From: Naegleria gruberi
Taxonomy: Eukaryota
DNA: 64,000 nt
Assembly (NCBI GenBank): GCA_000004985.1
Contig: GG738854.1
Reading direction: 5' to 3' (one strand)
Below the pieces are notes generated by a model, which saw nothing but the letters and a program-made list of their open reading frames with translations, was not told where the DNA came from and made no database searches. The position numbers and the translations under genes are program-made. Below are positions 2,440 through 49,526 of the stretch, one piece after another. Positions within the stretch are counted from its first letter, which is position 1; the number at the start of each line of letters is the position of its first letter.

Positions 2440-4121
2440 TTATTTTCCAAAACGTTTGTTAATAAAATTTTCATACAAGCTACTCTTTTTAAATCTGACA
2501 AAACTTCCCTTTTGCATATTTCTGATAACTTCCTCCTTAGCCTTATCAAAGGTTCTCATATTTGGTTTGGCAAGGTTTTTAGAAATTTCATCACGTAGAG
2601 CACCTGGAATATTGACCTCGAATGCTGATCCAATTTGAATATAAGTGTCAAAGAGATTTTTCGAAACTTCTTTCAGTGAATGGTCATCATCAATATCCAA
2701 TCCCTTGTAATGTTCCACTTCCATGCAAAACATCAAGCTCTCAACGTGAAATTCTCTCACTAAAAATTGTTTGAAAACCTCTCTAGCATTCACATCAGTT
2801 AAGAAAAACTCAAAGGTTTCATAAAGTGGTATAATTGGCTGCTCAGTTTTGGTTGTTGGAATTGGGTTTCGTTTCCTAAAGATGTTGAATTTAGACATGT
2901 CCATATTACGAGTCCATGTCGAAGAGAGTGGGAGAATAATGGAAATGAAAAAACTTCCTAACAATTCAATACCGAGGAAATAACCAATGGTTGGTTGTTG
3001 AGGCCAAAATTGATTCGGTACTGCAATTAAAACAATCATTGGTATGGCCACAACGAAAATACTGAAAAACAGCATGATTGTCATTTCCTTTCTAATGGAG
3101 AAGGCATCATTAATCTTTCTCATTTTCATTAAAAGATATCCAAATGGAATAATCAAAATAATGGTAATACAGACATAAACTCTGACAGCAATACCCTCTT
3201 GCTCATTACAACGTTTCTGACATGTTGGGTTGATAATATCAGCAGAAAATAACAGTACCATATGTATGATAAAAATCAAAGTTGCCCAAGTCAATAGCAC
3301 TACACTCAATAATATAACAAGAAATCTCTCAGAGAAGTAAAACTGATTCTTGAACAATTTAGAATACTTATCACTGTTGGCTACCGTCGTGTAGAGTGGC
3401 ATCTTTTTCAATCCAATATTACTATCGAGAGCAAAAGAGGTCACATCGCTCGAAACATCTGAACTGTCCAATAAACTTTCTCCCAATTCAGCTGCTAATC
3501 TTTTTTCTCTCCTATTGTTTCTTCGAATGTATGATGAGTTAAAACTCTGTAGAGCTATTGGTGATGATACCTCTTCATTCTCTTTCATAATTTGTGACTG
3601 AGCTTCAGCCAATTTATATTGCATAATAGTTCTGTAGCATCTGAAAATATATGGCAAAAAGTATGAAAATTGAATGAAACCAACAATGTAATACGTTATT
3701 GGGCAAACTAAAATCAAATCAAAATATAATCTCGAATACCTTTCCAATATTTCCAATAATTAAATTATTCGAATCTAAATTAAAATCCTTACATATAGGC
3801 CAAAGCAATAGATCCCGTAACTCCAGAAATTAATAATAAAAATACAGAACGATCCTTCAATGGCTGCTTATTTCTCCTCCAAATTGTCAGTGAAAAGGCA
3901 ACAACATAACACAACAATCCAAATCCGAAAATAAATCCCAACACATAGACTCTCCACGATTGATGAGGAGGAATTCTATTAATTCTCGATATATATAAAG
4001 GATAGGCATATGAACATTGATCCAAAATATCATGAGTTTGATCCTGATTCCAAGGTATTGGAGGTGAAACTATTATCGATGATAATAACTTGGTCATATT
4101 ATTCAGAATCGTGATGGACAT
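2440..4121 (-). CDS. Seven-transmembrane receptor with C-terminal RGS domain (GPCR-RGS hybrid), 2 exons (4121-3789 and 3756-2440)
   Basis: Multiple hydrophobic helices are followed by an RGS-domain-like C-terminal region (FLTDVNAREVFKQFLVREFHVESLMFCMEVEHYK ... GSFVRFKKSSLYENF). ORF 3789..4121 supplies the N-terminal TM segments. Confidence 0.7.
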
Positions 4122-4422: not shown

Positions 4423-7400
4423 ATGTCTTCATCAAATTTGGAACAATTGGAAAGTAGTTCTTCTTCTATGGCTCCTTCCATGCATAAATACGGAGCATGT
4501 ATTGAAGAATTTAATGCAAATATTTCATTTGGAAATTCTATCAAGTGGTGCAAGGATGAAAATTATATTGCCATGCAAACAAATAATACAGTATATATTA
4601 AGAATGTAATTAATGAAAAAAGAGGAACCATAGTATTGAACAAAGAATCGGAATCGGAAGATGGCACAGTAACAACAAGTCAAGAGCCTAATAGAACATC
4701 TACACACTTTAAAGACAGAACAGTCATACATCCGAGTATGTTTGTTCGTTTTTTACAATCATCTTTTAGATCGATATGTTGGAGTTCTCCGATTGAAAAT
4801 TATGAAACTTTTGAAATTACAAATGAAATTGGATGTTTAATATCATGTATTACAAGTGATAATAATTGCAGAATTTACAAGAGGCCAACCCAAGGATATA
4901 CCACAAATTGGGAGCTTGTTTGTGATGTTAGAGCCATTTTGCAAGATAATGACAAAATTCTTCTCTCAATTGAAAATGACAATGATGTCATCGTGACTCC
5001 ACAAGGAATTATTACAACAAATGGATTGGTCAATGAAGGTGAATTGATTACTAACAAGAAAACCAGAAATCATGTCTCTAAAAAGACATCTTCTGTTATG
5101 GGTTTGGAACAACAATTCTTTTCTCATTTCTACAAATCATTTACTGATGCATCTGGATTCGATCCAACAAAGCAGGAATATCAGGTTGGCTATAGAAAAT
5201 GGACAGATGAGGAACAAAAAATCTATGATAAGGTCTTGGAGAGTTCATTGGAATATTTCAAACCACAACTTGAGGAAAATTCACTTTCAACGGAAAGTCT
5301 CACTAAGAATTTGTATGTAAAACTGAGAACCAAAATGAGAAAGGATAAGGAAAAAGGAAAATTAACTGACACCAATATCAGTTCATCAACAAGAGAAACT
5401 AGAAGAACATCAACAGGATCTACAACTGAAGATCTTACCCAAGAAGATGTTGTAGAAACACCAGAAAAAAAGAGAAAAGAATCCCCATCTGAATCACAAC
5501 AACCAAAAAAGCTGAAAAGACTTTACTTTTCCAGAGGAGTTGCTAGAGCCAAAGACGAGGAGGTCAATCAGTCAGAGTATAACCATTGCCTTTATATTAC
5601 AGAACTTATGTGTTCAGACTTTTCCCAACCTTTCAAAAAGTCTATTGATGGAGCATTTAGACAATCTCTTTACATGGTGTGTGGATCTAAAACTGGTTTC
5701 TTATCTATCTTTGTTATTACCAACTTTGATAGAAAACTTGAAGTTGAACTTGTTGGTTATTCAAAGATTTTCTCTAATTTCATATCATTTGTGAAATTCC
5801 TCCCCTCTAGATCTGGTGATGAATTCTTTCGAATTGTTGTTGCAAGTTGTGAAGGTCAAATCAAAATTTTATCCATTCCTAAAAGCTACACTCAATCAAT
5901 TGAAAAACTAGACGATTTGGTAACTCCTAAAGAAATTTGTAAAGAGTACTCCTCATACTTTGAATCTGACAGTATCCCTCTTACAAGTTTGGAGACATTC
6001 TACGTTTCAAAGGATCAATCTAAAAAAGCGCTAGATGAAATGTACATGTGTTATTCGAAAGGCACGAATCTCTATGTGTGCAAATTTGAATTCCAAGATC
6101 AAGAAACTCTCTTGACTTGGCGAAAGAAATTTTCATGCCAAAACTTTACAATTTCTTCCATCTCGATGCAATACATAACAATTGACCGATCTGATAAGGA
6201 AAACAGTACTATTAATACCTTACTTGTATATACAACCTCTTTGGATGGAAGTCTTGTTCAGTGGAAGATTAATGAGGATACTACAGATGATGGATACACT
6301 TCAGTATATATTATTTCTAAAAATTTTGAATTACCAGTTTGGGGCTGTTCACTCTCTCCCAATAATGTTCAAATGGCTATTTCAGTTGAGAGACCTTCAA
6401 CCAGAGAAGTAAGAGCAGATTTGGAACATAGAAACAAGATTAGAATGTACATTCTCCCTCTATATTATCATGCCTTGAGAGCTATTTATCATATTCCTCA
6501 AACTGATCCAATTCCTTCACATTGTATTGTTGACTATTTCACAACTCTGTTGAGGAGAGGAATATTCAGAAAGCAACAAGCTTTTGATATTGCTGATTGT
6601 CTTTCCTCGAGTGATATGGTTGAGTACATTGAAAAGATTTTATCCAATGTATATGACACTGCCAATAATCTACCTCTGAAAAAGATTTTATACTTCATCT
6701 ATTCATGGATTTGTCGTGAGAAGAGTTATCCTCTCAGAGAAACTCTATTGGAACGAAAGGCCATCTTGGAAGAAGAATTGAGATATATTTATTCTGTGAC
6801 ACTCTTTGATATTCAATCTAAAAAGCAAGAAAAACCAAACTTGACTCAATATCTTCTCTGTGATTGGATCCTGCTGTACTATCAAGATTTTGTTGCTGAA
6901 CATTTTCCATCCAACAACCTTAATAATATGACTCCTTACATTCTCCAACAAGTGGCACAATTTTTACCAATCCTAGATTCTATAATCAAGACACTAAAGA
7001 ATGAAGATAATGCTGAGAAGAATTTGAAGGAAATTCAATTCGCTCAAAAACTCTTTGCATTATTTACTAGAGTATCGAACAAGGAAGATCATGCAGCAAG
7101 CATTTCGAATGAAATTATCAGTGAGACTAATTTCATCACTCCCCGAGATTCATGTTCTGTTTGTAAGCCAACAAGTGAAGAAAGATTTGTTCCAATTGTT
7201 TTTGGTTCCCAATTTTCACATGCCACTTGTTGTTCAACGAGAAAACATCCAATTGCTAGGGATGGTTTTACATTTGAGATCATCAGAGATGTTTATCAAA
7301 TGTTGGAGTGTTCTTGTTGTTGCCAACAGACAAGCCGTGATGGATTATTCTCTGTCTTGTACAGAAATTGTACTCAACATAATACTACTGCTGTTGTTGG

Positions 7401-41295: not shown

Positions 41296-44202
41296 ATGGT
41301 GGAAAGAAAACAAAAAAAAATGGCTCCAAAGCGAAAGCTTGATTTTCTAACGATTGAAATTGAAGCTAACCATGATCAACCACCAGTAAAATTATCAAAA
41401 CCATCATCATCATCAGAAGAAGAAGAAGACAATGTAATAATTATTTTGGATGAAACACATGCTTCCGATTGGCTAGAAATTAAACTCCAAAGCACACAAT
41501 TTCTTGTGGCTCTCCTTCCACAATTAGATTCATTTCTACAAGAATTTGGCTACACCATCATTGATGATCCGATGGTGAGAAGTTGTCTGGCTAGAATTAC
41601 TGGAAAATGTTTGTTGCCCAATTCCGAACGTTATGCAGAGTTTGGCAAAATTAATTTAAAAGCACAAAGGCTTATTATTAGTGATAGAACTTTTGTTCTA
41701 CACCTTTCCGATTCGCTGTACAGGCTGGGTGAATCCTATATTCAATCAATAGGAGCAGCTTATCATAATGATATTGATGTGGTTTATCGATACAAAAACC
41801 ATTTAAACAAATTTATCTTCATGAAACCATCAACTGCTATTCAATTGTTAAGAAAAAATCCTCAAACTCTGTTATCGATTCCTGAAAGATTTTATGAAGA
41901 TTCTGAATTTCTTTCAGAGGCTATTTCTACAGAAATAGAACTATTGGAAAAAATTCAAGATCCTACCAAGAATGAATTATTAATACCCCCAATACTACTA
42001 TGTCAAAACAAAGTTCTTACGAAAGCACTTGAACTTGGATTATTCAAGCCAGTTAAAAGTAGTATCCAATACGAAAGTTTAAACAACAGAGAATTAGTAA
42101 TTACTTTACTCAATTTTGGATGTGATGTAATGTTGTATAGTATTTTACAACTTTATTCCAACGACAAAGAAATTTTAAAGATATGTAATGAGAAGTTTCC
42201 ATATTTAATTAACAACAACCAATATTTGAATCTTGTAGAATCTCCAACTAGCTTCAAGTATCTCGACCATGAAACTAGAAACGACAAGGATTTTGTTTTG
42301 AAAATAGTTGAAAAATGTCAGATTTATAATTACCTTTCTTCTGATCTTCAGAAAGATCGTAGTATTGCTTTAAAAGCAGTCCGTGGAAACCCTGGTTATT
42401 ACAAGTACTTACCCAGAGAGCTCAGACGTGACAATGAGATCGCTTGCATAGCAATTTCTAATAATCCAGACATGTACTTTTATGTATCAGAGAATTTGAA
42501 AGATGACCATAATATTATTGAAATTTTCAAAAATAACATTCACAAGTTGAGTCATTTTCATATTGATTTAAGATATTTACCTCCTGATTTTAGAAAAGAT
42601 AAGGAAATAGTATTAAAATCAGTTAAAAGTAGTGGGGAAATGATATTATTGGCATCAGAAGAATTATTAAACGATAGAGAAGTACTTTTATTGGCCTGCA
42701 ACACATATACATACTATTACGACAAGAAAGATTTTAGAATTCCATACTTTATTCCAGAAACATTTCGAAAGGATGCCTCCTTTATGTTAGAAATATCAAA
42801 GACAAATCCTATTTGTTTTGAGTTGGTTCATGAGGAATTAAGGAACGACAAGACTTTTCTATTAGACTTTTTCAAGGTAATTGAACGATTTCTCAACATG
42901 GCATTAACTACAGATGATGATGATTATAACGATCGAGATAACGTTGAAAAATTGATTATGCAAAACGTCTTTAAACTCATTCCTAACAAACTTCTTAATG
43001 ATAGGAATTTTTTATTGGAATCTCTAGAAATTAATGTGACATTGATTAATTTCTTTCCTTATGAATGGGGAAATGATATTTCAGTCATAACATTAGTGTT
43101 GAAACAGAAGCCTGAATATTATAACAATTTAACCAACTTTAGGGAACACAAGGATATTGTCATGCTAGCGCTTGCTGATCCAAATATGAAGATTCCATCT
43201 AAATTCATGTCTGACAAAGATATTGTAATGAAAGCAATGGAATATAATGCATCAAAAACATTTAAAGTAGCTCACAAAAAACTACAAAAAGATAGAGATG
43301 TAATTTTACATTATTTAACGCACAATACTAATAGCTGTTATGGGCAGACCATCAATGATATATTTTTTCAAAATCCAAACCTACGAAATGACCGTGAAGT
43401 AATGCTAGCTCTTTTGCAACATAGAATGTTGCACTTTAAACATATTGACGAAAAATTGAAAAAAGATCCAGAGTTTGCTTTCCAACTGATTGAAAAAAAA
43501 TGTAATGTTGATGTAAGAGGAACTAAAATATCAAAACAAGAACTCATGAAAGCAAATTCCATTGATTCATTCATAGAATTTTATCTCAAAGATGAAGATG
43601 ATTCACACTTTTCTTCTGTCAAGAAACAAGTATTTGGTGCATTAATCAAGCTTTTTTCTAATGAGAAAAGAGTAACAGAATCACTTAAGGTTCACCACCA
43701 AAATTTATTTAAAAATGACAAAGAATTTACATTACAATGCTGTTTGTATGAAGGATTTGGTTCCTGTCTGGGTAACGCATTTGTAAATGATGTGGAGTTT
43801 ATGAAAAGAGCAACTTTATTGAATTTCAATAATGTAATATACTCAAAAGATTTCTTCATGGAATGTTGGACAAGTTACTTAAATGAAAAACTGAATTACA
43901 AACGAATGAGGAAGTGTTTCAATTATTTGAGTAGTCATTCTTTTGATACAACAGGATGGAACGAGGACCCACGATCACAAAGGGTAAACACTTATTTGGA
44001 TTCAAATATTTTGAAAGGTTGTAATCGTGTGACTACTGAAACTAGATCTACTATTTTAAAATTTTTGACAGGTATTTCAATTCTTGAAGAAAAAGTTCTC
44101 ATTCACGAAGAAGTCACTGATGGTCAAAAGATAAAAATTTACTTCCATATGGATCACACAAACAAAAAATGGAAAAAGATTATGCAGAAGCAATCCCTAT
44201 AA
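41296..44202 (+). CDS. DUF4116-repeat protein, 968 aa, intronless
   Basis: At least 12 tandem ~28-35-aa repeats of the form L(R/K)(N/D)D(K/R)E(I/V)(V/A)L.A(V/I)..N...(F/Y).(Y/F) (e.g. LRNDREVMLALLQHRMLHFKHIDEKLKKDPEFAFQLI; LQKDRSIALKAVRGNPGYYKYLPRELRRDNEIACIAI). Acidic N-terminus. Confidence 0.7.
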   Translation: MVERKQKKMAPKRKLDFLTIEIEANHDQPPVKLSKPSSSSEEEEDNVIIILDETHASDWLEIKLQSTQFLVALLPQLDSFLQEFGYTIIDDPMVRSCLARITGKCLLPNSERYAEFGKINLKAQRLIISDRTFVLHLSDSLYRLGESYIQSIGAAYHNDIDVVYRYKNHLNKFIFMKPSTAIQLLRKNPQTLLSIPERFYEDSEFLSEAISTEIELLEKIQDPTKNELLIPPILLCQNKVLTKALELGLFKPVKSSIQYESLNNRELVITLLNFGCDVMLYSILQLYSNDKEILKICNEKFPYLINNNQYLNLVESPTSFKYLDHETRNDKDFVLKIVEKCQIYNYLSSDLQKDRSIALKAVRGNPGYYKYLPRELRRDNEIACIAISNNPDMYFYVSENLKDDHNIIEIFKNNIHKLSHFHIDLRYLPPDFRKDKEIVLKSVKSSGEMILLASEELLNDREVLLLACNTYTYYYDKKDFRIPYFIPETFRKDASFMLEISKTNPICFELVHEELRNDKTFLLDFFKVIERFLNMALTTDDDDYNDRDNVEKLIMQNVFKLIPNKLLNDRNFLLESLEINVTLINFFPYEWGNDISVITLVLKQKPEYYNNLTNFREHKDIVMLALADPNMKIPSKFMSDKDIVMKAMEYNASKTFKVAHKKLQKDRDVILHYLTHNTNSCYGQTINDIFFQNPNLRNDREVMLALLQHRMLHFKHIDEKLKKDPEFAFQLIEKKCNVDVRGTKISKQELMKANSIDSFIEFYLKDEDDSHFSSVKKQVFGALIKLFSNEKRVTESLKVHHQNLFKNDKEFTLQCCLYEGFGSCLGNAFVNDVEFMKRATLLNFNNVIYSKDFFMECWTSYLNEKLNYKRMRKCFNYLSSHSFDTTGWNEDPRSQRVNTYLDSNILKGCNRVTTETRSTILKFLTGISILEEKVLIHEEVTDGQKIKIYFHMDHTNKKWKKIMQKQSL

Positions 44203-44479
44203 CCAAATCATGCTGGATGTTTCAATTTAAATGATTCCTAAATTGATTTGAAAGAAGATTAGAATTGGATTAAGAAACATTACAATTATTGTAAAAATCC
44301 CGAGGACTTCGTATCTCAACTATTCGCTTTCCGAAATTAAGAAATCAAATCTTGAACACTAATTGGAAGATATATCGAATTGGAACTCCTCCTTTATGTA
44401 ATCGGATCCTAGTACTTAACATACTTTAAAACTTGGCCCAAACCACTCTCTAGCACTAGTGTGAAAAAAATAACTCAAA

Positions 44480-46093
44480 ATGGTAGTCACTGAACTAAGC
44501 TCTTCACTTGATGGTTTATTTCAAGTCATGTACCTAATCATTGGCTTAGTACTAATTTATATCATGATTCATACCTTTAGATTTATAAGAATCTACTTGA
44601 AATATAAACACATACCTGGTTATGTCTCATTCTTCCCTTCAATTATAGATTCACTCATGCATGGAGATCCAATGTTTGTTTACTATGGTTATTTGTGTAG
44701 CATGCAAGCTTTTACAAAACATCCAAATGCAGCAATGATTAAAGTTCAACAAGGATCAGAGATATTTTTCACAATAGCCAGGGATAAGGAAATGATCAAG
44801 GATGTTCTTGTTAGAAAGTATAAATCTATTGGAAAGGGTGAGCTATTGGCTCCAGTTGGTTTGTTTGGAGCGAATCTATTCTCAGCTGATTCTAATAATC
44901 CACTTTGGAAAAAGCACAGAACATTGGCTAATCCAGTATTCAGTAACAGTTCTCATTTAAGGAATGTTTTTAGAGTTACAATGGAGGAATTAGCAAAGAT
45001 GATTCCATACTGGACCAAATATAATGATTCAGATTCTAATGGAAATATTCGAAATGTTAACACTACACAAGAGTTGAAGTCTATTACATTAAGCATTATC
45101 AATAGAGTTGCATTCGATTTCAATATAGAGATATTTGATAAGAATCCTGAACACAGAGACGAAGTACATGGTTGGATTTCTGATTTATTAGTTGGTTTAT
45201 TATACAAGTTTGTATTCCCTGAATGGTTATTCGAATATGTTCCTTTTGGAATTTTCAAAAGATTTAAAGATGCAAAGAATAGATTCAGAGAGACAGCCAT
45301 GAAGATGATTCTCAAAAAGACAAAGGAATATGAGAATGACAATCAAGTGAAAGAAGATGAAGATTTACTAAGCTTATTGTTGAAAAGCTCCAATAATGGT
45401 AAATTAACAGAGGAAGAACGTTTGACAAATGACGAATTGGTTAGTGCCATTTTCATTATTTTCTTTGCTGGATTTGAAACAAGTTCCAATTCTTTGAACT
45501 TCATGTTGAGATTGTTGGCAACCAGACCAGAAATACAAGAAAAACTCATTGAAGAAATTGATAATGAAATTCCATCCATGGATTCAATCAAATTTGAAGA
45601 TGTCACTGAAAAACTTCCATATTTGACATCATTCATTAAGGAGGCATTTAGAGCCAAACCAATTGTTGGTGATACCACAAGAATAATTACCAAGAAGGGA
45701 GGTGAAACTATTGGTGGACAAATCCTTGAAGAAGGAACGGTTGTTAACGTTGGAATATATGCTCATCATAAGCTGTCTCATAATAATGCTATGGATGATT
45801 TCAAATTTGATCGTTTCTGCATTCCAAATAATATCGAGAAGGGAACTATGGGAAATTTATCTATTGATTTCCAAAAAGAAGATTTAATTACCTTCTCTAT
45901 TGGCCCAAGGGATTGTATTGGAAGAAGAATGGCATTAATAGAAATCAAATTAATCCTTGTTTATTTGTTGAAACAATACAGGATTAAGGTTCCAGAGCAT
46001 TTGAAAGAACAACAATCAAACATCAAAGAAACATACATTATTACAAGAACTGTTTTAGAGCCATTCATATTTGATTATGAAAAGAGAGTTTAA
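44480..46093 (+). CDS. Cytochrome P450 monooxygenase, 537 aa, intronless
   Basis: N-terminal membrane anchor; heme-binding loop FSIGPRDCIGRRMALIEIK (FxxGxRxCxG); AGFETSS oxygen-binding motif (A/G-G-x-E/D-T-T/S); EAFR (ExxR). Confidence 0.9.
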   Translation: MVVTELSSSLDGLFQVMYLIIGLVLIYIMIHTFRFIRIYLKYKHIPGYVSFFPSIIDSLMHGDPMFVYYGYLCSMQAFTKHPNAAMIKVQQGSEIFFTIARDKEMIKDVLVRKYKSIGKGELLAPVGLFGANLFSADSNNPLWKKHRTLANPVFSNSSHLRNVFRVTMEELAKMIPYWTKYNDSDSNGNIRNVNTTQELKSITLSIINRVAFDFNIEIFDKNPEHRDEVHGWISDLLVGLLYKFVFPEWLFEYVPFGIFKRFKDAKNRFRETAMKMILKKTKEYENDNQVKEDEDLLSLLLKSSNNGKLTEEERLTNDELVSAIFIIFFAGFETSSNSLNFMLRLLATRPEIQEKLIEEIDNEIPSMDSIKFEDVTEKLPYLTSFIKEAFRAKPIVGDTTRIITKKGGETIGGQILEEGTVVNVGIYAHHKLSHNNAMDDFKFDRFCIPNNIEKGTMGNLSIDFQKEDLITFSIGPRDCIGRRMALIEIKLILVYLLKQYRIKVPEHLKEQQSNIKETYIITRTVLEPFIFDYEKRV

Positions 46094-47040
46094 TAAACTT
46101 AAATATTTTACAACACTCAATTTAGCGCTTATTTTCTTGTAAACGTTTCACGTTAATCAAAATTCCAGTTAAACAATAAAATGAATCTCCTGAATATGTG
46201 AGGGTCTTGAGATGGAAATTGAAATATACGAATACCATCCTTATTAATTTCAACATCGCTTATCATTTGGGAATGGATAAGAGTGTACAGCATGGCATCT
46301 GGGAAATTGGAAATTTTATCTGTGCTCAATTTAAATTGAGAAAATCCTACTTAAACAATAATATTATCGTCAGTGCTGTCCATATTATTTGACCCATAGC
46401 AATACTTTTCTCTAATGAGTCTTCTTTCTTCTAGTTTCCATGTCCTTTCTACTAATCTATCAATGGAATAAAATGGTATTAAACAAGAGGCCAATGTACA
46501 TTCTCCTATTATTCTCATGTTTCAACAGATTTATCAGTTATGTGGTTTAATAGGTTATACTTCAGCTATGAATATGGGACCACTTGCGTTGACTGGAGCT
46601 TTTCTTGGTTTTGAGTTTGCTGGTTATTTATTGAGCTTGACCTTGTGGATATATTGTCAGGCAGTCATCACCAAAGTTCTTTATGGTGTCTACTTTAATG
46701 AAAATCAGGCATGGATGAGACTTTCGAAAGTTCATTCTATTTGTAAGAAAGTGGTACTAATCTGGTTGCATTTTTCAATTCATTGTTGATATTGACTTTT
46801 ATCCTAATAGGAATGATTTTTTTAATTTGTCGGCCCCCCATGAATATTTCGTTTGTACCATTGACCAAAAGGAAATCAACAAACAAGAATGAGGTTGAAA
46901 AAAGGGATGAAAAGGCAAAAGTTTCTAACAAGATTATGGCTGAAACAATTGTAGACACAATCGAACCAACAATTACAAACACTGTGCAATAAAATCCCTT
47001 CACTTATCTATTAATCACCATTTCAAATCCTTTTTTTCAT

Positions 47041-47046
47041 CTTAAA
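47041..47046 (-). terminator. Pol III oligo-T terminator of 5S copy 1
   Basis: AAAAAA on the plus strand immediately 3' of the 5S gene (T-run on the coding strand). Confidence 0.6.
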
Positions 47047-47166
47047 ACAAAAAAGACTACAACACCACAGGTTCCCAAGTTGTCTCCAACCTCAGTACTG
47101 ATGTGGCTCGACGATGCTTAACTTCTCAAATCGGACGGGATGAGGTGCATTCATCGTGATATGGCC
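47047..47166 (-). rRNA. 5S ribosomal RNA gene, copy 1 (120 nt)
   Basis: Reverse complement reads AUGGCUACGGCCAUAUCACGAUGAAUGCACCUCAUCCCGUCCGAUUUGAGAAGUUAAGCAUCGUCGAGCCACAUCAGUACUGAGGUUGGAGACAACUUGGGAACCUGUGGUGUUGUAGUC. This is the canonical 5S helix I-V layout with box A (AAGUUAAGCA). It is followed by a T5-6 Pol III terminator. TATA-like TTTATATATTA lies ~25 nt upstream. Confidence 0.9.
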
Positions 47167-47442
47167 GTAGCCATCAATAATCTAAATTTCTAATATATAA
47201 ATCTAGTATAGGGTGAGTAAAAGTTGTTCACAAAAATTCAATTATTATTAAGGATTATTAAGACGAAAAGCCTGCCAGGAATATGGCGACGATCCCGCTG
47301 CAGTCTTTGACTGTATGAACATTGTTCAATGTGAATTCAAGAGTTCTTGGTTGATCAGCCCTATATTTATTCACAATTAGACCTGTTGAATCGCTTGACT
47401 GTTTTTCTCCAGAAAGCTGAATTCAGCATTTACAACAAATAA

Positions 47443-47492
47443 NNNNNNNNNNNNNNNNNNNNNNNNNNNNNNNNNNNNNNNNNNNNNNNNNN
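47443..47492. other. Assembly gap (50 N)
   Basis: Run of n characters. Confidence 1.
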
Positions 47493-47793
47493 ATTTTAAG
47501 TTTATCTCTTAAACCACTGAGAAAATAAACAAACGACACCCTCTTCCTATTCTTTGCTTTTTCAAGTTCCAAGTTCCTTGCCTATCTTTCAAATTATTTC
47601 CGCTTATCCATCAAACTTGAAACAATTCTATTGGTTAATGCACAACCAATCTTTCAAAATTGTCTCCTTTCTACTCCCAAATTGCAACAAGTCCACTTCA
47701 AAATAAATATAAATACTTGCATTGTGTTCGAAACTTTTGAAAAACAACAACAAAACAAATATCTAAACAACTAAACAACTCAAACTAATCAAA

Positions 47794-48246
47794 ATGATGC
47801 TTAATTGTCAATTCAGTGATGAAATTATCAAAACCTATGAAGAAATGAGAATGGGAAAGGGTTCGAATAAGGATAAAAAGTTTCTCGTATTAAAAATGCA
47901 AGAAAGTTCCATTCAAATAGATCAAGAATTGTCCCAACTCTCTTCATTGGACGAATTAACTGCCAATCTCCCACCAAAGAATTCTCGTTTCGTTTGCTAT
48001 CATTTAAGTTTCGAAATGCCATCCCAAAACGAAACTTGTCAAATCAGAGAAGGAACCAGAACCAAAATGATGTTTCTCACTTGGTGTCCAAACGAAACCA
48101 ATGTTAAGGAAAAGTTTCAAGTTGCTGCCACTGTCAAAACAGTTAAACAAAAATTAAATGGTCTGAGTGCAACTATTCACTGCTCAACCAAGAGTGAAAT
48201 TGATGAAAAGTCAATGATTGAAAAATGTTTAACTTTTATGAAATAA
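47794..48246 (+). CDS. ADF-H domain protein (cofilin/ADF/GMF-like), 150 aa
   Basis: SDEIIKTYEEMRMGK...KFLVLKM... then KMMFLTWCPNETNVKEKFQVAATVKTVKQKLNGL fits the ADF-H pattern (equivalent of K.vFI.WsPd...K.KM.YAss). Confidence 0.7.
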   Translation: MMLNCQFSDEIIKTYEEMRMGKGSNKDKKFLVLKMQESSIQIDQELSQLSSLDELTANLPPKNSRFVCYHLSFEMPSQNETCQIREGTRTKMMFLTWCPNETNVKEKFQVAATVKTVKQKLNGLSATIHCSTKSEIDEKSMIEKCLTFMK

Positions 48247-48728
48247 TAGACATGAAAACCAACAATTATAAAAATGTAAATAAATGTAAATACTAATAGA
48301 TGTAATTATTCCAACAAAGCTGAACTCTAAAATTGAATCATATTTTAATTATTAATAAATTCAAACCACATGCAAAGAAATGCAGAAATAACATCACTTT
48401 GTAATAGCGATGAATTTTTACATGGTTCATAAGAAACATAACTGCAACCCAAACCAACAACAACGTCTGCTGTCCAAAAATCTGTTTCTGTTCAAAATAT
48501 CTTTTCATTTTGCCGTGCAATTTTAAAATCAATCGGAAACTATCTCTGGACATTGTTATTATATGAAAACATCTATTAAGAAAAACCTTAAAAGACTCAG
48601 ATCAGAATTTTAACACTTGTATTAATAGCTGTACAATTGCAGCAAAATAGGCAAAATTGTTGTTTAGCCATATTTCAAACTTGATAAAGGACTTTGGCAA
48701 TAAGCTTAGTGTAAAATGCAAAATAGGC

Positions 48729-48733
48729 AAAAA
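48729..48733 (-). terminator. Pol III oligo-T terminator of 5S copy 2
   Basis: AAAAA on the plus strand immediately 3' of the gene. Confidence 0.6.
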
Positions 48734-48853
48734 GACTACAGCACCACAGGTTCCCAAGTTGTCTCCAACCTCAGTACTGATGTGGCTCGACGATGCTTAA
48801 CTTCTCAAATCGGACGGGATGAGGTGCATTCATCGTGATATGGCCGTAGCCAT
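48734..48853 (-). rRNA. 5S ribosomal RNA gene, copy 2 (120 nt; one substitution relative to copy 1, A/G at 47054 vs 48741)
   Basis: Same 120-nt sequence as copy 1 except one base; followed by a T5 run; GATATAAT upstream. Confidence 0.9.
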
Positions 48854-49067
48854 TCATTATATCAACTTGTGAAATATGAATCAGTTCACTCCTTTTTCTT
48901 TACCTTTCTGAACTGCTATGAAATTGAGTGTATATAGCTCCATTAGAAAGTTACAAATGACTTGTTTTTGGATGTTGATTAGTATATTGAATAAATTTTA
49001 CTCATGTTCACTATTCAATAAATAATTTATTGACAATAATTGAGAGAATCTATGATATTTTGCTAAC

Positions 49068-49526
49068 TTAACCACCTCTCAATCTCAATACTAAATGCAC
49101 AGTTGAATCCTTTTGAAGATTGTAATCACCAATAGTTCTTCCATCTTCCAATTGCTTACCGGCATAAATCAATCGTTGTTGATCTGAAGGAATACCTTCC
49201 TTATCAAATATCTTTTGTTTCATATTCTCAACAGTAGCATTCGATTCCATTTCAATAGTGATTGTCTTTCCAGTTAAAGTTTTTACAAAAAGTTGCATTC
49301 CTCCTATTAATCTCCACACCAAATGAAGTGTTGAATCTTTCTGAATGTTATAATCATTAATAGTTCTGCCATCTTCCAATTGTTTTCCAGCAAAGATGAG
49401 TCTTTGTTGATCTGGAAGAATTCCTTCCTTATCATGTGCCTTTCTTTTCACATTTTCAATTGAATCATTAGATTCAACCTCCAAAGTGATAGTTCTTCCA
49501 GTGAGTGTCTTGACAAATAATTGCAT
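49068..49526 (-). CDS. Head-to-tail di-ubiquitin-like protein (two divergent 76-aa ubiquitin-fold repeats, second ending RLRGG-stop)
   Basis: Each repeat is ~75% identical to canonical ubiquitin ([10 protein letters not shown](R/K)TIT(L/I)E(V/M)ES...DQQRLI(F/Y)[14 protein letters not shown](I/L)QKDST(L/V)HLV). The repeats differ from each other. Repeat 1 ends WRLIGG and repeat 2 ends LRLRGG. Confidence 0.85.

Follow-up and report, generated by a model that had tools for sequence, protein, structure and literature searches.

Do two almost identical 5S rRNA sequences that lie in the same orientation on either side of a cofilin gene, close to an assembly gap, represent functional genes of Naegleria gruberi, and does their pairing mean anything beyond the chance proximity of two members of a dispersed family? 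An earlier note, made from the letters of a 64,000-nucleotide stretch of contig GG738854.1 (the window from here on), had described them as independent, dispersed copies with their own RNA polymerase III (Pol III) signals. We examined this description with covariance models, related metagenome contigs and the published genome-wide catalogue of N. gruberi 5S genes. The features at the centre of the question are as follows.

47054-47172, minus strand: 5S rRNA gene copy 1, 119 nt (RF00001, 102.8 bits, E=2.1e-21)
47443-47492, no strand: assembly gap of 50 N between copy 1 and the cofilin gene
47794-48246, plus strand: cofilin/ADF-H gene (PF00241, E=1.7e-24), between the two 5S genes
48733-48851, minus strand: 5S rRNA gene copy 2, 119 nt (RF00001, 105.4 bits, E=4.4e-22)

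Scanning with the Rfam 5S_rRNA model (RF00001, cmscan) confirmed the two 5S genes on the minus strand, and the sub-threshold covariance score that the earlier note had named as grounds for doubt was found in neither, both copies lying far above the gathering score of 38. Each covers the full model (positions 1-120) and is not truncated, with no non-canonical pairs flagged in the alignment of either. The model gives a length of 119 nt, not the 120 nt first assigned, and the intervals had to be redrawn accordingly: that of copy 2 had been off by 1-2 nt, and that of copy 1 (47047-47166) had been shifted by 6-7 nt, omitting the first 6 nt of the RNA and including terminator bases. The copies had been said to differ at one base, and they do, the sole difference being RNA position 111, where copy 1 has U and copy 2 has C. 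Position 111 pairs with G8 in helix I, as G8-U in copy 1 and G8-C in copy 2, so the base pair is kept despite the difference, and the minimum-free-energy folds of both copies correspond to the standard three-helix junction (-39.0 and -41.5 kcal/mol). By covariance score and predicted fold, then, copies 1 and 2 are genuine, intact 5S rRNA genes. Elsewhere in the 64 kb, Rfam revealed no other credible RNA-family match even at E<=1, and no tRNA gene was detected by ARAGORN or by Rfam at E<=1. Weak matches to the bacterial sRNAs BtsR1 and CrcZ, which surfaced in a permissive Rfam scan, were far below their gathering scores and were dismissed as chance.

The minority base, U111 of copy 1, could be checked against an independent strain. 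The 4701-bp ENA metagenome contig L001, whose encoded P450 is 99% identical, is colinear with window positions 43111-47439 (94-99.6% identity), and its positions 3857-3975 hold the orthologue of copy 1, with the same score and the same U111. The variant is therefore not a sequencing error and, as judged from these two sequences, is real and stable across isolates. Copy 1 and this orthologue are identical at 119/119 positions and the flanking 337 nt contain six differences, a contrast that is only weakly informative given that about two differences would be expected in 119 nt.

Both genes are accompanied by the elements that would be expected of Pol III transcription units, which we located as follows.

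47173-47203, minus strand: proximal upstream block of copy 1 (-31 to -1), with TATATAT at -27 to -21 (47193-47199), a putative TFIIIB/TBP-positioning element
47116-47123, minus strand: box A of the internal control region of copy 1 (RNA +50 to +57), AGTTAAGC
47076-47093, minus strand: box C-like segment of copy 1 (RNA +80 to +97), GAGGTTGGAGACAACTTG
47049-47053, minus strand: oligo-T Pol III terminator of copy 1, TTTTT followed by G and a further TTTT, as read from the sequence
48852-48882, minus strand: proximal upstream block of copy 2 (-31 to -1), with ATATTT at -26 to -21 (48872-48877) and TATAA at -10 to -6 (48857-48861)
48729-48732, minus strand: oligo-T Pol III terminator of copy 2, TTTT, or five T with the last gene base counted

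Box A matches exactly the consensus quoted by Feng et al. and recurs with the same bases at 48795-48802 in copy 2, while the box C-like segment, which carries two substitutions relative to the box C consensus, has the same bases at 48755-48772 in copy 2. Directly after the genes come TTTTTGTTTT in copy 1 and TTTTGCC in copy 2, so that both have the run of at least four T right after the 3' end that characterizes type 1 Pol III genes. The terminators and the upstream TATA-like elements proposed earlier for each copy were thus borne out, the former as TTTTT and TTTT immediately after the genes and the latter as an A/T-rich stretch near -26 in both. Together these features delimit a 5S unit of about 155 bp, made up of the A/T-rich element near -26, the 119-nt gene with box A and the box C-like segment, and a run of four to five T.

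Such a unit would be expected to recruit Pol III through the joint action of its internal control region and the upstream A/T-rich element, the latter positioning TFIIIB; transcription would start at or beside the first G and stop in the T run, and the resulting 5S RNA would then join the large ribosomal subunit. This scheme draws on established knowledge of 5S genes and on the work of Feng et al., the sequence features themselves being those observed here. Since no TFIIIA was identified in the N. gruberi genome by Feng et al. (PMC3369914), the upstream element may count for more than usual in this organism, and it is in that setting that the short conserved block upstream of the two copies becomes of interest as a candidate promoter element.

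Neither the genes nor their dispersal are new to this genome. Feng et al. (2012, PLoS One 7:e36878, PMC3369914) catalogued 279 putative 5S genes on 117 scaffolds (their Table S1) and described them as lying apart from the rDNA, equipped with an internal control region and an upstream TATA box, and terminated by T runs. The present copies share the organism and these features, their own internal control region being a putative one, and nothing substantive sets them apart. They can also be placed in the catalogue itself. Table S1 contains a pair on scaffold_10 at 271052-271169 and 272732-272848, whose spacing of 1680 compares with 1679 in the window; with an offset of 224,000, both entries fall on the window genes within 3 nt. 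On the basis of this coordinate spacing and offset, copy 1 is probably entry R22632 (scaffold_10:271052-271169) and copy 2 probably entry R33669 (scaffold_10:272732-272848). The copy 2 entry has the modal similarity value of 0.75, common to 160 of the 279 entries, and the copy 1 entry, with a similarity of 0.7438 and a length of 118 nt, falls in a class of three; copy 2, with C111, probably represents the majority genomic form.

The lack of linkage to an rDNA repeat, also claimed earlier, is explained by the peculiar location of the other rRNA genes. In Naegleria, 18S, 5.8S and 28S are confined to an extrachromosomal circle of ~14 kb, of which there are thousands of copies (PMC5805870, PMC10586121). 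Chromosomal 5S genes are therefore unlinked to rDNA by default and, since the circle carries only 18S/5.8S/28S, the 5S supply must come from chromosomal copies. In line with this, there was no other rRNA match in the 64 kb, even at E<=1, and no 18S/5.8S/28S adjacent to the 5S genes in the manner of Saccharomyces cerevisiae. Taking these lines of evidence together, we consider it highly likely, with a probability of roughly 0.88, that both copies are functional chromosomal 5S rRNA genes of N. gruberi NEG-M belonging to its ~279-copy family. They are two members of a scattered family catalogued in 2012, and the locus, although real, is ordinary and already known: the arrangement that had been singled out as worthy of note is the normal, published state of this genome (PMC3369914). 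A reading of the sequence by itself was evidently able to recognize 5S genes and their Pol III signals; beyond that, the case matters little.

How the two genes came to lie so close together was examined at two scales. Within the window, a direct-repeat search found no further 5S copies, and the two do not form a tandem 5S rDNA array. Genome-wide, we parsed all 279 entries of Table S1 and found a minimum spacing between neighbours of 462 bp, a next smallest of 1104 bp and a median of about 34 kb, with no head-to-tail arrays among the entries. Adjacent spacings below 5 kb numbered 32, about 3.4 times the 9.4 expected from random placement on 41 Mb (2000 trials, maximum 22). The window pair is the fourth closest, and about 20 pairs at 1.5-3 kb occur elsewhere in the genome. 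Loose 5S pairs and triplets are thus a recurrent feature of the N. gruberi genome. The summary table of PMC3369914 scores a tandem arrangement as present, whereas the coordinates given in the same work yield scattered singles and loose pairs, and the pair studied here is likewise a loose one with a protein-coding gene in between.

The sequences around the genes bear on the same question. It had been stated that the flanks of the two copies are not similar, and this holds beyond about 30 nt but fails for the block at -31 to -1, where 21 of 31 positions are identical (68%). For comparison, A/T-matched 31-mers drawn from the window gave 10.1 +/- 2.5 identities, which corresponds to P of about 1e-4. 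The BLAST match between the copies accordingly extends to 154 nt, reaching from -31 as far as the T run. L002 (positions 539-657, 106.3 bits), another 5S gene of the Naegleria type and the third considered here, was the sole extra locus recovered when JGI metagenome data were scanned with a 24-nt Naegleria-specific 5S word; a scan of viral contigs for further Naegleria-type 5S genes gave none. L002 matches the shared upstream block weakly (15/31 and 14/31), having in common with the window copies an A/T-rich core near -24 to -17 and AT at -2/-1, and its terminator consists of four T if the last gene base is counted. It lies 165 nt from a 361-aa ORF in unrelated surroundings, and outside the gene and upstream block the flanks of copy 1, copy 2 and L002 are all unrelated to one another. 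Comparison of these three independent upstream regions suggests that the similarity at -31 to -1 reflects a conserved promoter, the remnant of a local duplication, or both. As close pairs are in excess genome-wide and the copies share the 31-nt block, local duplication of a small 5S unit is the most likely origin of the pair. Of the earlier description as independent dispersed copies rather than a tandem array, the absence of an array therefore stands, but independence is doubtful in view of the same block and of the 32 close pairs against 9.4 expected.

The distance between the copies has to be read with the assembly gap in mind. The 50-N gap reported at 47443-47492 is there, and is the only run of N in the window. 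L001, after following the window up to the gap edge, runs on for 423 bp that have no match to the window even at a word size of 7 nt. From this extension, the real content of the gap is, on the L001 sequence, at least about 420 bp, which implies that the gap is undersized and that the true 5S spacing is at least about 2.05 kb. The separation of 1.69 kb given earlier thus agrees with the start-to-start spacing of 1679 bp in the assembly but, as that interval spans the gap, is a lower bound. The assembly spacing beside copy 1 is consequently too small, with at least about 420 bp hidden. It had also been suggested that the gap might conceal more 5S copies, a suggestion that finds no support in the 423 bp of L001 that fall inside it, where there was no further 5S gene.

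These data allow the alternatives to a simple pair of functional genes to be weighed. The linkage of copy 1 to the cofilin gene and to copy 2 depends on the scaffold join across the gap, and the close pairing could in part be an assembly artefact if that join were wrong or the gap much undersized, as hinted by the failure of the 423 bp of L001 past the gap edge ever to reach the post-gap window sequence and by the resulting spacing of at least about 2.05 kb. We regard this as unlikely: one unbroken contig contains copy 2 together with the cofilin and di-ubiquitin genes, a second, which L001 confirms, contains the P450 gene and copy 1, and with about 20 similar pairs at 1.5-3 kb elsewhere, a true pair here would be unremarkable. 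Somewhat less likely again is that one or both copies are silent, intact-looking pseudogenes from which no 5S rRNA is made. Copy 1, with the minority U111, would be the likelier of the two to be silent, since its entry shares its class (0.7438, 118 nt) with just two others as against 160 entries at the value of copy 2. Nevertheless, copy 1 is full length, its change from G-C to G-U preserves the pair, and its terminator and upstream A/T-rich element are intact; the identity of its L001 orthologue at all 119 positions, next to six differences in 337 nt of flank, points the same way, if only weakly. Least probable of all is that the copies are 5S-derived mobile elements or retro-copies, whether SINE-like or carried inside a transposon. 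A family spread over 117 scaffolds with unrelated flanks is a pattern that mobile elements also give, and the earlier note had itself named evidence for a 5S-derived SINE or pseudogene as grounds for refutation. Both copies are, however, full length, covering model positions 1-120, and comparison of the 60-nt flanks on the two sides of each copy gave no direct word in common of 7 nt or more, and thus no target-site duplications. There is also no A-rich tail and no extra body sequence, the similarity stopping at the T run, and the block shared by the two copies lies upstream of the transcription start, where an RNA-mediated copy would not carry it. A SINE or retro-pseudogene origin is thereby largely ruled out, and two functional genes of the dispersed family remain our preferred reading.

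The neighbouring genes invite a different kind of proposal, in which the pair, besides producing 5S RNA, would serve the gene that it brackets. That gene is as first described, a cofilin/ADF-H gene between the 5S copies on the opposite strand (Pfam PF00241), and its ORF encodes a protein that matches N. gruberi cofilin EFC47457/XP_002680201 exactly, just as the neighbouring cytochrome P450 matches Naegleria gruberi NEG-M EFC47456 exactly. A small ORF has its stop codon 61 nt from the 3' end of copy 1, and that of the P450 gene is 960 nt away. The 3' end of copy 2 is 486 nt from the stop codon of the cofilin gene, and its 5' end 216 nt from the stop codon of the di-ubiquitin gene on the same strand. 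Pol III genes are known to act as barriers in yeasts, and the pair might also, as suggested earlier, form a Pol III-dependent chromatin boundary insulating the cofilin gene from its neighbours: the copies point the same way with just one gene between them, copy 2 is close to the stop codons on both of its sides, and close pairs are commoner than chance genome-wide. We think this very unlikely, and transcriptional interference, the other effect suggested earlier, is likewise speculative. With 5S copies occupying the narrow intergenic spacers of a compact genome, proximity to Pol II genes cannot be avoided; no 5S gene adjoins any of the cofilin loci obtained from related organisms (L003-L005); and local duplication accounts more simply for the excess of pairs.

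A broader version of the idea, a shade more improbable still, is that same-orientation 5S pairs bracketing one protein-coding gene are a recurrent functional arrangement, working either as Pol III insulators or as substrates for recombination between 119-nt direct repeats, with excision and reinsertion of circles containing a 5S gene plus the bracketed gene. We considered it because the 5S direct repeats here flank a gene with several near-identical paralogues, the cofilin family comprising four cluster members with >90% identity, one of them an exact duplicate on a second contig; if true, such circles could help explain these cofilin copies. The cofilin paralogues include EFC37212, EFC37627, EFC36819, EFC39596 and D2VTS0. 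A search for cofilin homologues yielded three metagenome contigs encoding relatives (L003-L005), and none of the three carries a 5S gene. Two ordinary members of the 5S family, probably related by local duplication, continue to be the reading that we favour for this locus.

Dispersed 5S genes have been described in several other lineages, and the Naegleria pair can be set against them; its nearest counterparts, apart from the other N. gruberi copies, are those of Acanthamoeba castellanii and of several fungi. A. castellanii, another free-living amoeba, likewise has many 5S genes, about 100 in all and spread over most chromosomes, which stand singly between protein-coding genes without linkage to 18S/28S; it differs in belonging to Amoebozoa rather than Heterolobosea, and in having chromosomal, subtelomeric 18S/28S rDNA (PMC9528979). 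With the classical tandem 5S rDNA of animals and plants, the pair shares the RNA itself, the layout of the putative internal control region and the type of terminator, but it lacks a repeated spacer, its two units cease to be similar ~31 nt upstream and at the T run, and they are separated by a Pol II gene. A parallel in gene design is with fungi such as Schizosaccharomyces pombe and Neurospora crassa, whose dispersed 5S genes are TATA-dependent: they have unrelated flanks, combine the internal promoter with an upstream TATA-like element near -25 to -30, and terminate at T runs. Experiments in these fungi have established that the genes depend on the upstream element, whereas for Naegleria such dependence is suggested by the position of the element and its similarity between the two copies.

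In Yarrowia lipolytica, too, 5S genes are scattered and not inside the rDNA, and some of them form dicistronic tRNA-5S genes; TFIIIA-independent expression has been proposed in this yeast (PMC2566860), a route of some relevance here because TFIIIA was not found in N. gruberi. The window copies differ in having no upstream tRNA gene, and a Yarrowia-type tRNA-5S fusion was discarded for the window on the ARAGORN and Rfam results (E<=1). The L001 extension beyond the gap edge does contain, on the opposite strand, a sequence that resembles tRNA-Asp(GTC) over its 5' two-thirds and lacks the 3' acceptor strand. As neither ARAGORN nor Rfam at E<=1 called it a tRNA gene, we treat it as a truncated fragment; besides being truncated, it departs from the Yarrowia tRNA-5S arrangement in lying about 600 nt away and on the opposite strand.

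Although N. gruberi 5S genes are scored 'tandem arrangement: yes' in Table 1 of Feng et al. (2012; PMC3369914), the coordinates in Table S1 of that paper distribute the 279 entries over 117 scaffolds, with neighbours no closer than 462 bp and a median spacing of ~34 kb, a layout of scattered single genes and loose pairs, without arrays, that is at odds with the 'tandem' score. Some 15 of these 279 entries, short at 80–106 nt, may be fragments.

A further Naegleria-type 5S gene is carried by L002, a JGI metagenome sequence:

L002 539–657, minus strand: Naegleria-type 5S gene, environmental
L002 823–1908, plus strand: 361-aa ORF

This gene is one base apart from the second window copy (48733–48851, minus strand), with A for T at about position 24. 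Like the 5S genes of the window, it is tightly embedded among protein-coding genes; it lies upstream of, and divergent from, the 361-aa ORF, which starts 165 nt away.

We compared the first window copy (47054–47172, minus strand) with its counterpart in L001, a near-identical ENA metagenome contig. The two genes are identical at 119/119 positions, unlike the spacer 5′ of them (window 47245–47442 and L001 4040–4290), where a 9-bp deletion, a 41-bp insertion and several substitutions separate the two isolates. The part of L001 equivalent to the assembly gap (window 47443–47492) holds, at 4583–4640, a tRNA-Asp(GTC)-like sequence, GGGTGTGGTATAGTGGTAGCATTCCAGACTGTCACTCTGGCGACCCGGGTTCAATT, in which A-box and B-box-like motifs are discernible and which stops within the T loop, followed by TGTTTTG. 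Neither ARAGORN nor Rfam (E<=1) returned a tRNA or RNA-family call there. Possible readings of the sequence are a tRNA pseudogene that has been truncated, a short Pol III unit, or an error in the assembly of the metagenome contig.

Protein-coding features of the window, other than the P450 and cofilin genes, include:

41296–44202, plus strand: 968-aa protein with eight DUF4116 repeats (Pfam E=4.7e-58)
46517–46992, plus strand: two small hydrophobic ORFs of 90 and 69 aa, between the P450 gene and the first 5S copy
49068–49526, minus strand: two-repeat ubiquitin-like gene with 228-nt halves

Both small ORFs are kept in L001, where they are called as genes (3231–3461 and 3604–3795). P450 and cofilin carry consecutive protein numbers in GenBank (EFC47456 and EFC47457), which suggests that the reference has no annotation at this position; a small membrane-protein gene may have been missed here, its end lying 61 nt from the 3′ end of the 5S copy. 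No exact translation of the DUF4116 ORF was found in the protein collection, and the reference gene model therefore probably differs from it. An exact translation of the ubiquitin-like ORF was likewise not found in that collection; its two halves share only 75% identity, and both have diverged from canonical ubiquitin.

In N. gruberi, cofilin (47794–48246, plus strand) belongs to a multigene family. Identity exceeds 90% for four members of the cluster, among them EFC37212, which duplicates EFC47457 exactly on a second contig and may reflect either a true duplication or an allelic scaffold; further paralogues show 88%, 74% and 65% identity.
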